Part shown: one piece after another, positions 37,839-39,162 of the stretch | Position numbering within the stretch: position 1 is the stretch's first letter | Layout: every line of letters begins with the position of its first letter | NCBI GenBank assembly: GCA_963788375.1 | Contig: CAWBGT010000016.1 | Coordinates: 94,078 to 158,077, forward strand | Direction of reading: 5' to 3' | Length of the DNA stretch: 64,000 nt | Source of the DNA: an uncultured Chloroflexia bacterium | GTDB taxonomy: Bacteria > Chloroflexota > Limnocylindria > Limnocylindrales > CSP1-4 | The notes under the pieces: generated by a model | Seen by the model: only the letters and a program-made list of their open reading frames with translations | What the model was told of the DNA's origin: nothing | Database searches by the model: none | Made by a program: the position numbers and the translations under genes

Positions 37839-39076
37839 CGCCGGGTGGTCAGGCGCGGACGGCTGCCTTCAGCCCATCGATGACGCGGTCCACCTGCACG
37901 TCCGTCATGTCCGGCCAGATGGGCAGGCTGATCTCGCCGGCGTAGGCCGTTTCGGCGCCCGGGAACTGGCCCGGGCGGTATCCCAGGTTGCGATACAGCG
38001 GGTGCAGGTGCAGCGGAATGAAGTGGACGCTCGTGGCGATGCCGCGCGGTGGACAGGTCCGCGATCACGCGGGCACGCCGGGAGGCCATCGCCCTCAATG
38101 ACTCGGGGAGGATGGCCACCCCAGGGAGCTGCGCGTCGGCCACCTCGCGGCGGCGCGCTTCCGGCCCGAGCTGCAGCATGAACAGGTGCCAGGCGTGGCC
38201 AGGATCCTCCACGCCCACCGGCAGCCGGACCAGGCCCTCGCGCTCCGCGTCGGCCAGGCCACCGAGGTAGCGCCGTGCGATGGAGGCTCGTGCGTCCCGG
38301 AGCCGGGCCGCCCGCCCCAGCTGGACCAGGCCGATGGCTGCCGCCAGATCCGTGAGGTTGTCCTTGAAGCCCGCGGCCTCGATCTCGTAGTACCAGGAGC
38401 CACCCGAGGAGTAGCGCTTCCAGCCGTCACGGCCGATGCCGTGAAGCCGCATGGAGCGGGCACGCTCGGCGAGTGCCGCATCCGCCGTGACCAGCATCCC
38501 GCCTTCACCGGTGGTGATCGTCTTGGTGGCATAGAAGCTGTACGCCCCCGCTTTCCCGACGGTGCCGGCGAAGCGACCACCGCAGGTGGCGATGGGCGAG
38601 GGAAAGGCGTGCGCGGCGTCCTCGATGACCGGCAGGTCGCCCGCCACCGCCATCAGGTCTGCCATCAGGGCCGGCAGCCCGGCGATGTGGACGACCTCGA
38701 TGGCCGCGGTCCGCGGCGTGATCGCGGCCCTCACGGCCGCCGGATCCACGTTGGCCGTCAGTGGGTCGACGTCCACCAGAACCGGTCGTGCCCGCACGTA
38801 GATGGCCACCTCTCCCGAGGCGGCGAAGGTGTACGTGGGAACGATCACCTCGTCCCCGTCGGTGACGCCGGTTCCCTCCAGCGCCAGGTGCAGCGCCGCC
38901 GTCGCGCTGTTGACCGCGACGGCATGCGGCGCTCCCGTGGCCGCAGCCACGGCAGACTCGAATGCCGCAGCCCGGGCACCCGTCGTCAGCCACCCGGTGT
39001 CCAGCACCTCGAGCATGGCGTCGCGCTCGGCCGCCCCGATCGACGGCCGATGGAACGGGATGCGCTCGTCGCTCAT
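37748..39076 (-). CDS. DegT/DnrJ/EryC1/StrS-family sugar aminotransferase (PglE/ArnB-like)
   Basis: 'MSDERIPFHRPSIGAAERDAMLEVLDTGWLTTG…' with the PLP lysine region 'SFYATKTITTGEGG'. ATG at 39076. Confidence 0.8.
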   Translation of the reverse strand: MSDERIPFHRPSIGAAERDAMLEVLDTGWLTTGARAAAFESAVAAATGAPHAVAVNSATAALHLALEGTGVTDGDEVIVPTYTFAASGEVAIYVRARPVLVDVDPLTANVDPAAVRAAITPRTAAIEVVHIAGLPALMADLMAVAGDLPVIEDAAHAFPSPIATCGGRFAGTVGKAGAYSFYATKTITTGEGGMLVTADAALAERARSMRLHGIGRDGWKRYSSGGSWYYEIEAAGFKDNLTDLAAAIGLVQLGRAARLRDARASIARRYLGGLADAEREGLVRLPVGVEDPGHAWHLFMLQLGPEARRREVADAQLPGVAILPESLRAMASRRARVIADLSTARHRHERPLHSAAPAPAVSQPGIPPGPVPGRRNGLRRRDQPAHLAGHDGRAGGPRHRWAEGSRPRLTTRRYFGRWTGSMVTMPAAYGRLGPLRKSDAMG

Positions 39077-39162
39077 GCCGGACCTGCGGCGACCGCGGGC
39101 TGCGGGGCCGCCCGCTCGTCGCTCATGCCGGACCTGCGGCGACCGCGGGCTGCGGGGCCGCC
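39063..39162. repeat. Perfect 50-bp tandem duplication (2 copies) spanning the dehydratase stop and aminotransferase start
   Basis: 39063-39112 is identical to 39113-39162 (cgctcgtcgctcatgccggacctgcggcgaccgcgggctgcggggccgcc). Confidence 0.9.

Follow-up and report, generated by a model that had tools for sequence, protein, structure and literature searches.

A perfect 50-bp tandem repeat at the overlapping junction of two surface-glycan genes in an uncultured Chloroflexia bacterium

The repeated gene junction

The stretch of DNA analysed here, 64,000 nucleotides of contig CAWBGT010000016.1 from an uncultured Chloroflexia bacterium, is called the window below, and positions refer to it unless another locus is named. 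On its reverse strand (-), a gene for a PglF/CapD/FlaA1-type membrane nucleoside-diphosphate-sugar (NDP-sugar) 4,6-dehydratase of 651 amino acids (aa), assigned by Pfam and homologues (39123..41078), is followed by an aminotransferase gene whose open reading frame (ORF) begins at 39076. Where the two genes meet, a 50-bp unit is present twice, head to tail, at 39063-39112 and 39113-39162 (100% identity, spacing 50). Read on the coding strand, the upstream copy (39113..39162, -) comprises the final 37 nt of the dehydratase gene with its stop codon, a first ATGA and the opening 16 nt of a start of aminotransferase type, while the downstream copy (39063..39112, -) holds a second dehydratase 3' end, a second ATGA and the true aminotransferase start. 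The unit consists of native sequence: in relatives, one half matches the 3' end of the dehydratase gene and the other the 5' end of the aminotransferase gene.

Tandem Repeats Finder (TRF) reports the repeat with period 50, 2.0 copies, 100% matches and a score of 200, and with high identity and zero bases between the copies it is classed as a simple tandem duplication. The unit was not found elsewhere in the 64-kb window, even at 3 mismatches. Since no match was expected by chance (0 in 100 shuffles) and the copies are fully identical, the repeat is not a chance resemblance, and the preliminary description of this DNA, which had reported a 50-bp unit with the aminotransferase start present twice, is borne out. 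A repeat search of the whole window returned no other perfect long tandem repeat, and across about 2 Mb of related loci no further pair of perfect copies with a period of at least 25 bp turned up. Predicted RNA folds of one unit, of both units and of the junction with its flanks were not unusual (z-scores from +0.4 to +1.6), and explanations based on a hairpin or another structure were dropped on these values.

The reading frames across the junction follow directly from translation. The dehydratase frame ends with ...LDGVAAPQPAVAAGPA at a TGA (39125-39123) that overlaps an ATG (39126-39124). This ATG opens a chimeric mini-ORF of 17 codons, MSDERAAPQPAVAAGPA followed by a stop (39073..39126, -), in which five aminotransferase codons precede 12 dehydratase codons that come from the second copy of the dehydratase 3' end. 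The TGA of the mini-ORF (39075-39073) overlaps in turn the ATG at 39076-39074, which opens the aminotransferase (MSDERIPFHRPSIG...; MSDERIPFHRP...). Co-directional 4-nt stop/start overlaps are thus found at both junctions, ATGA at 39126-39123 and at 39076-39073, and the mini-ORF covers the 46 nt that separate the two genes. On all these points, from the dehydratase stop on the copy-2 ATG to the composition of the 17 codons and the stop on the aminotransferase ATG, the sequence anatomy given in the preliminary description is accurate in every detail.

Neither of the two flanking reading frames is altered across the duplicated junction, and the true aminotransferase start at 39076 retains its native 34 nt of upstream context. 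This preservation does not depend on the length of the unit, because any tandem duplication that includes the junction leaves the first copy to end the upstream gene and the second to start the downstream one. What the length does determine is the fate of the mini-ORF: it stops exactly on the second ATGA because 50 is 2 mod 3, an outcome with an a priori chance of 1 in 3. The length arithmetic offered earlier is right for the position of the mini-ORF stop; that both frames are preserved at any length had been missed.

The two genes and their surroundings

The dehydratase carries a full-length PF02719 Polysacc_synt_2 domain (residues 303-596, profile positions 1-291 of 293, E 3.5e-100) and a PF13727 CoA_binding_3 match in its N-terminal region. 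Its homologues are 639-659 aa long and 77-83% identical, and the only 100% match is the entry of the source itself, P0001. The dehydratase product is unaltered by the duplication.

The downstream gene matches PF01041 DegT_DnrJ_EryC1 (E 1.9e-89), with the domain in frame over profile positions 2-288 of 360 only, short of a full-length domain. Its ORF as read encodes 442 aa (37748..39076, -), against 406-416 aa in homologues; it is colinear with these to about residue 345, and the last ~97 residues are out of frame. The break lies near 38045, where a +1 insertion, ACCGCG[C]GGCATCGCC (ACCGCG[C]GGCATC), is read at 38035-38050 (-). The displaced C-terminal segment, GIATSVHFIPLHLHPLYR...AAVRA and a stop, was recovered by tblastn and translation in another frame (37849..38043, -), and is 81-83% identical to the last 63 residues of the aminotransferases of L161, L163 and L164 (L and P numbers denote the loci and protein entries compared). 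Removal of one base near 38045 gives a 408-aa protein ending at 37849; the tail of the 442-aa version overlaps the convergent Wzy gene, whereas the restored version does not. The preliminary description was right about the genuine start at 39076 and missed this frameshift.

A second +1 insertion, GTC[G]CTGGGC at 33338-33353 (-), near 33345, splits a PMT_2/GT39-like gene (~32189-33875) that is a single ORF in relatives (550 aa in L002, 566 aa in L001). The two frameshifts stem either from mutations that truly pseudogenised the genes or from errors in the consensus. What looked like a third frame break, near 30300, was discounted, as it rests on an out-of-frame ORF of the error-rich L001. The tblastn comparison with homologues for frame breaks covered only this glycan part of the window, and no clustering of lesions is claimed; the rest was checked by Pfam coverage, on which the remaining genes seem complete, a frame plot of GC content at third codon positions being too noisy to count frameshifts.

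Around the pair lies a surface-glycan cluster which, by Pfam, includes a Bac_transf/methyltransferase fusion, GT2 glycosyltransferases, a Wzy_C protein and the PMT_2/GT39-like membrane protein. The fusion places the Bac_transf sugar transferase and the methyltransferase domain in one 570-aa ORF (41263-42975, -); in L161 and L173 separate genes encode them, and in L167-L169 they are fused in 417 aa. Elsewhere the window, which has a GC content of about 70%, carries an ATP synthase operon, a MurA-like gene, mreB, hpf and a Tad/Flp pilus locus, all full length by Pfam.

Several other repeats of different kinds were seen in the window. Three tandem paralogous units of about 360-410 bp at 27921-28875 (-), each with a small Flp-type pilin (...EEGQGLAEYALILALIAIVAIVALLFLGGQVS...), adjoin the Tad/Cpa pilus genes at 21.9-27.7 kb. 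Between the Tad locus and the genes that follow it, DNA without a clear sign of coding (21315-21447) carries imperfect tandem repeats with units of 35 bp and 23 bp and an identity of 86-88%. An 18-bp repeat of 3.3 copies (GAGCGGCTCGTCGCCAAC) at 15952-16011, perfect and in frame, belongs to a 602-aa ORF without a Pfam match (15469-17277, -), and a long low-complexity array with a 12-nt period (GCCCACCCCGAC-like, about 14 overlapping copies) occupies 2247-2515; if translated, the latter would presumably form a Pro/Ala/Asp-rich repeat region.

The junction in relatives and duplications at other junctions

The junction was compared across ten lineages of the dehydratase/aminotransferase pair. The nearest genome loci are L001 and L002, from Chloroflexia metagenome-assembled genomes (MAGs), and metagenome contigs are no closer; when GTDB genomes and JGI metagenomes were scanned for the aminotransferase, nothing closer than 61-68% identity was returned. 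Seven of the ten lineages have a single ATGA or GTGA overlap (L001, L002, L161, L163, L243, L244 and, from gene coordinates only, P0013). The contig L243, at first read with a 33-nt spacer, carries a frameshift ahead of a GTGA overlap, and the spacer was rejected. Short spacers separate the genes in L162 (7 nt) and in L173-L177 (18 nt). The 50-bp duplication was found in the window alone and in none of the nine other lineages. As the single junction is seen across lineages and the duplication only here, we take the single 4-nt overlap to be ancestral and the 50-bp duplication to be derived.

A second duplication of the same junction is present in L164-L170 and L172, where ...GGCCGGGGCATGAG is directly followed by GACCGGGGCATGAG..., a 14-nt tandem duplication with 13/14 identity (L164 3152-3186). 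It concerns the same gene pair and the same ATGA and, as in the window, its length is 2 mod 3 and it creates a bridging mini-ORF (MRTGA and a stop) that links two ATGA motifs. In contrast to the window's repeat, it is shorter and older, and its second ATG is preceded by an acquired GAGGA Shine-Dalgarno-like motif. It was assembled independently in at least eight JGI/ENA samples, and the sister contig L163, whose dehydratase protein is identical, has a single junction. Together these observations show that such events are real and tolerated, and that they can appear fixed in a population.

We then surveyed 2.08 Mb (the window and 177 loci) for pairs of NTGA motifs in which the first motif closes a long ORF, the second opens one, and the sequence between them is tandemly repeated. 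Four further junction duplications were found, all between genes of glycan clusters and each giving a relay ORF of 4-5 codons. In the isolate Massilia sp. X63 (L070, 3473-3490) 14 nt are duplicated between a DegT and a Polysacc_synt_3 gene, Pfam-confirmed, with the mini-ORF MRLAA and a stop. Further Massilia isolate genomes hold two more cases. One of 14 nt, common to two species (L063 8696-8713 and L064 8690-8707), leads from an unknown gene to a GT4 gene. The other, of 11 nt, is likewise common to two Massilia species (L050 7862 and L059 7863), with flanking genes without Pfam confirmation. A last one, of 11 nt on a metagenome contig (L144, 6143-6157), joins DegT to NeuB, both Pfam-confirmed.

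Several candidates were set aside. At 12636 in the window (d=14) there is no real gene junction, the upstream ORF being spurious (MreB ends at 12604); matches in L163 (d=10), L055 (d=12) and L001 (d=15) were put down to chance, as codon-periodic or off-frame. A 53-bp repeat of 3.1 copies with 98% identity in the Roseiflexaceae MAG locus L017 (6630-6791) is intergenic between convergent genes and has no coupled junction.

The lengths of all six independent junction duplications (50, 14, 14, 14, 11 and 11 nt) are 2 mod 3, against a share of 33-41% among all control NTGA pairs. When the two cases that prompted the idea are left aside, four of four remain, with p ~0.01-0.03. The excess is no more than suggestive. 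Not one junction duplication was found in 1.03 Mb of viral contigs searched as a second set, which neither supports nor refutes the pattern.

Origin and possible consequences of the repeat

The explanation that we favour, with moderate confidence, is that the repeat is a real and very recent spontaneous tandem duplication spanning the ATGA of two co-transcribed surface-glycan genes, and that it is nearly neutral. Its recent date follows from the zero divergence between the copies. As the duplicated segment includes the overlap, the first ATGA ends the upstream gene and the second starts the downstream one. Ribosomes finishing the dehydratase would reinitiate at the first ATGA, read 17 codons, stop on the second ATGA and reinitiate on the aminotransferase. 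Reinitiation at the first ATGA would be possible because its context from -34 to +16 is the same as that of the true start, and independent initiation at 39076 should be unaffected because the upstream context has been duplicated too. In reporter experiments, coupling required overlaps or very short spacers: termination-reinitiation fell by 40-80% at +14 nt and was almost gone at +22 to +38 nt (PMC10666635). Given that near disappearance, a bare 46-nt spacer would be expected to uncouple the genes, and a relay ORF would be needed if coupling matters. With a spacing of -4 nt, short ORFs are able to "deliver" ribosomes to the gene that follows, a property exploited by mycobacterial interspersed repetitive units (MIRUs; PMC12548453). 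It is plausible that the mini-ORF maintains translational coupling as a relay. Taken as a whole, the interpretation put forward in the preliminary description is partly supported. The mini-ORF peptide would be a functionless by-product, and the duplication, being close to neutral for expression, could persist by drift. A perfect 50-bp repeat would also be unstable and would be expected to collapse to one copy, as in the reversible capsule-gene duplications of pneumococcus (Waite et al., cited in PMC4022640).

Some observations weigh against this explanation. The repeat cannot be extended by even one base on either side (left flank ...GGGATG versus unit end ...GCCGCC; right flank ACCCC versus unit start CGCTC), so that flanks and unit ends have 0 nt of endpoint microhomology in common. 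Duplications by slippage often have a few bases of such microhomology, which is typical and not obligatory. Only a weak AGG Shine-Dalgarno-like motif precedes the ATG. Beyond the source itself, the closest dehydratase relative in the protein search is 83% identical. The two +1 frameshifts near 38045 and 33345 reflect either consensus errors or decay; the aminotransferase is accordingly either a pseudogene or mis-sequenced, which weakens a functional reading of the duplication. Within the favoured explanation, they also mean that the locus may be under relaxed selection, with the duplication as one more lesion.

It is possible, if not what we favour, that the second copy is an artefact of assembly or consensus, with one real copy and an untrimmed overlap where contigs or read ends were joined, or an error of polishing or of strain merging. 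The exact identity of the copies, the absence of the duplication from every relative and the missing microhomology would all fit such an error, as would the two single-base frameshifts in the same 6 kb, in genes intact in relatives, which point to a possibly imperfect consensus. The MAG contigs of the nearest relatives are of long-read style (named contig_N), and in L001 at least five frame breaks fall within 3.3 kb over the dehydratase and aminotransferase (8037-11326), several of them at G runs, as is typical of uncorrected long-read indel errors. Moreover, 50 equals k-1 for k=51, and the joining of k-1 overlaps is a known type of error in de Bruijn assemblers. However, the usual long-read errors are indels of 1-2 nt and not insertions of 50 bp. 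The window is free of Ns and of further repeats like this one, and its housekeeping genes (ATP synthase, MurA-like, MreB, Tad pilus) are full length by Pfam. A 100-bp stretch fits within single reads of any current platform and is rarely invented by assemblers; no second feature of its kind was seen in the window or across the ~2 Mb of loci covered, and comparable junction duplications were reproducibly assembled elsewhere, isolate genomes included. As a rough judgement, and counting in the selected variant considered next, a real duplication is probable and an artefact a substantial possibility.

That the duplication is both real and selected appears improbable to us. In this case the relay mini-ORF would tune the ratio of dehydratase to aminotransferase, or gain and loss of a unit would act as a reversible switch of surface-glycan expression. 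The uniform 2-mod-3 lengths of the six events speak for selection, as does the 14-nt version, which appears fixed in its population across at least eight samples; tandem duplications in capsule genes are, in addition, an established mechanism of phase variation in pneumococcus (Waite et al. 2001, 2003, as cited in PMC4022640). Unlike those on/off duplications, the window's repeat leaves both ORFs unaltered across the junction. Its zero copy divergence indicates a recent event and not one that has long been maintained, the downstream gene is frameshifted in the window sequence, and the sample behind the length pattern is small (the four cases above), with zero events in the independent viral set. 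Insertion of a MIRU-like mobile intercistronic repeat with its own coupled ORF is hardly credible. A short ORF coupled at -4 nt to a downstream gene does fit the MIRU description in PMC12548453; however, the unit duplicates the ends of the genes beside it and is homologous to the equivalent positions in relatives, and as it is native flanking sequence that is not dispersed in the window, a mobile element was rejected.

As a short tandem duplication, the window's repeat adds one more case to a familiar class of event, in an instructive position. Like the termination-reinitiation pairs with NTGA overlaps at -4 nt (Huber et al. 2019, 2023; PMC6728339, PMC10666635), the window has canonical ATGA overlaps between co-directional genes; it differs in chaining two junctions through a 17-codon ORF made by the duplication, and its coupling is predicted from the sequence. 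MIRUs (Supply et al. 1997, as summarised in PMC12548453) are likewise short, tandemly repeatable intercistronic units with an ORF coupled at -4 nt, a coupling which minimises the effect on downstream expression. They are, however, dispersed, apparently mobile and unrelated to the flanking coding sequence, whereas the unit in the window is a one-off copy of flanking gene ends. The pneumococcal duplications in cap3A, cap8E and tts (Waite et al. 2001, 2003, cited in PMC4022640) are also perfect, short and located in a surface-polysaccharide locus, but they lie within an ORF and switch it off, while the duplication studied here holds a junction and keeps both frames intact across it.

If the repeat is an artefact, it serves, with the two nearby frameshifts, as a flag on assembly quality, and either way no new kind of system is revealed. 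If it is real, it is a natural example of a junction duplication that costs neither protein anything at the junction, in which a single step un-overlaps two coupled genes and gives rise to a new small ORF. Novelty could lie only in the mod-3 regularity, which is based on six events. We consider it rather unlikely that tandem duplications spanning NTGA motifs are a recurrent route by which overlapping gene pairs become separated, with selection retaining mainly those of 2-mod-3 length through relay mini-ORFs. Such lengths would be favoured because only they chain NTGA to NTGA and so keep termination-reinitiation coupling. If this were true, junction duplications would seed short spacers (for example +7, +10 or +46 nt) and new small ORFs, and the 50-bp repeat of the window would be the youngest example caught so far. 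The 2-mod-3 hint thus provides a testable prediction on selection for termination-reinitiation relays and on one way in which short intergenic spacers may arise.

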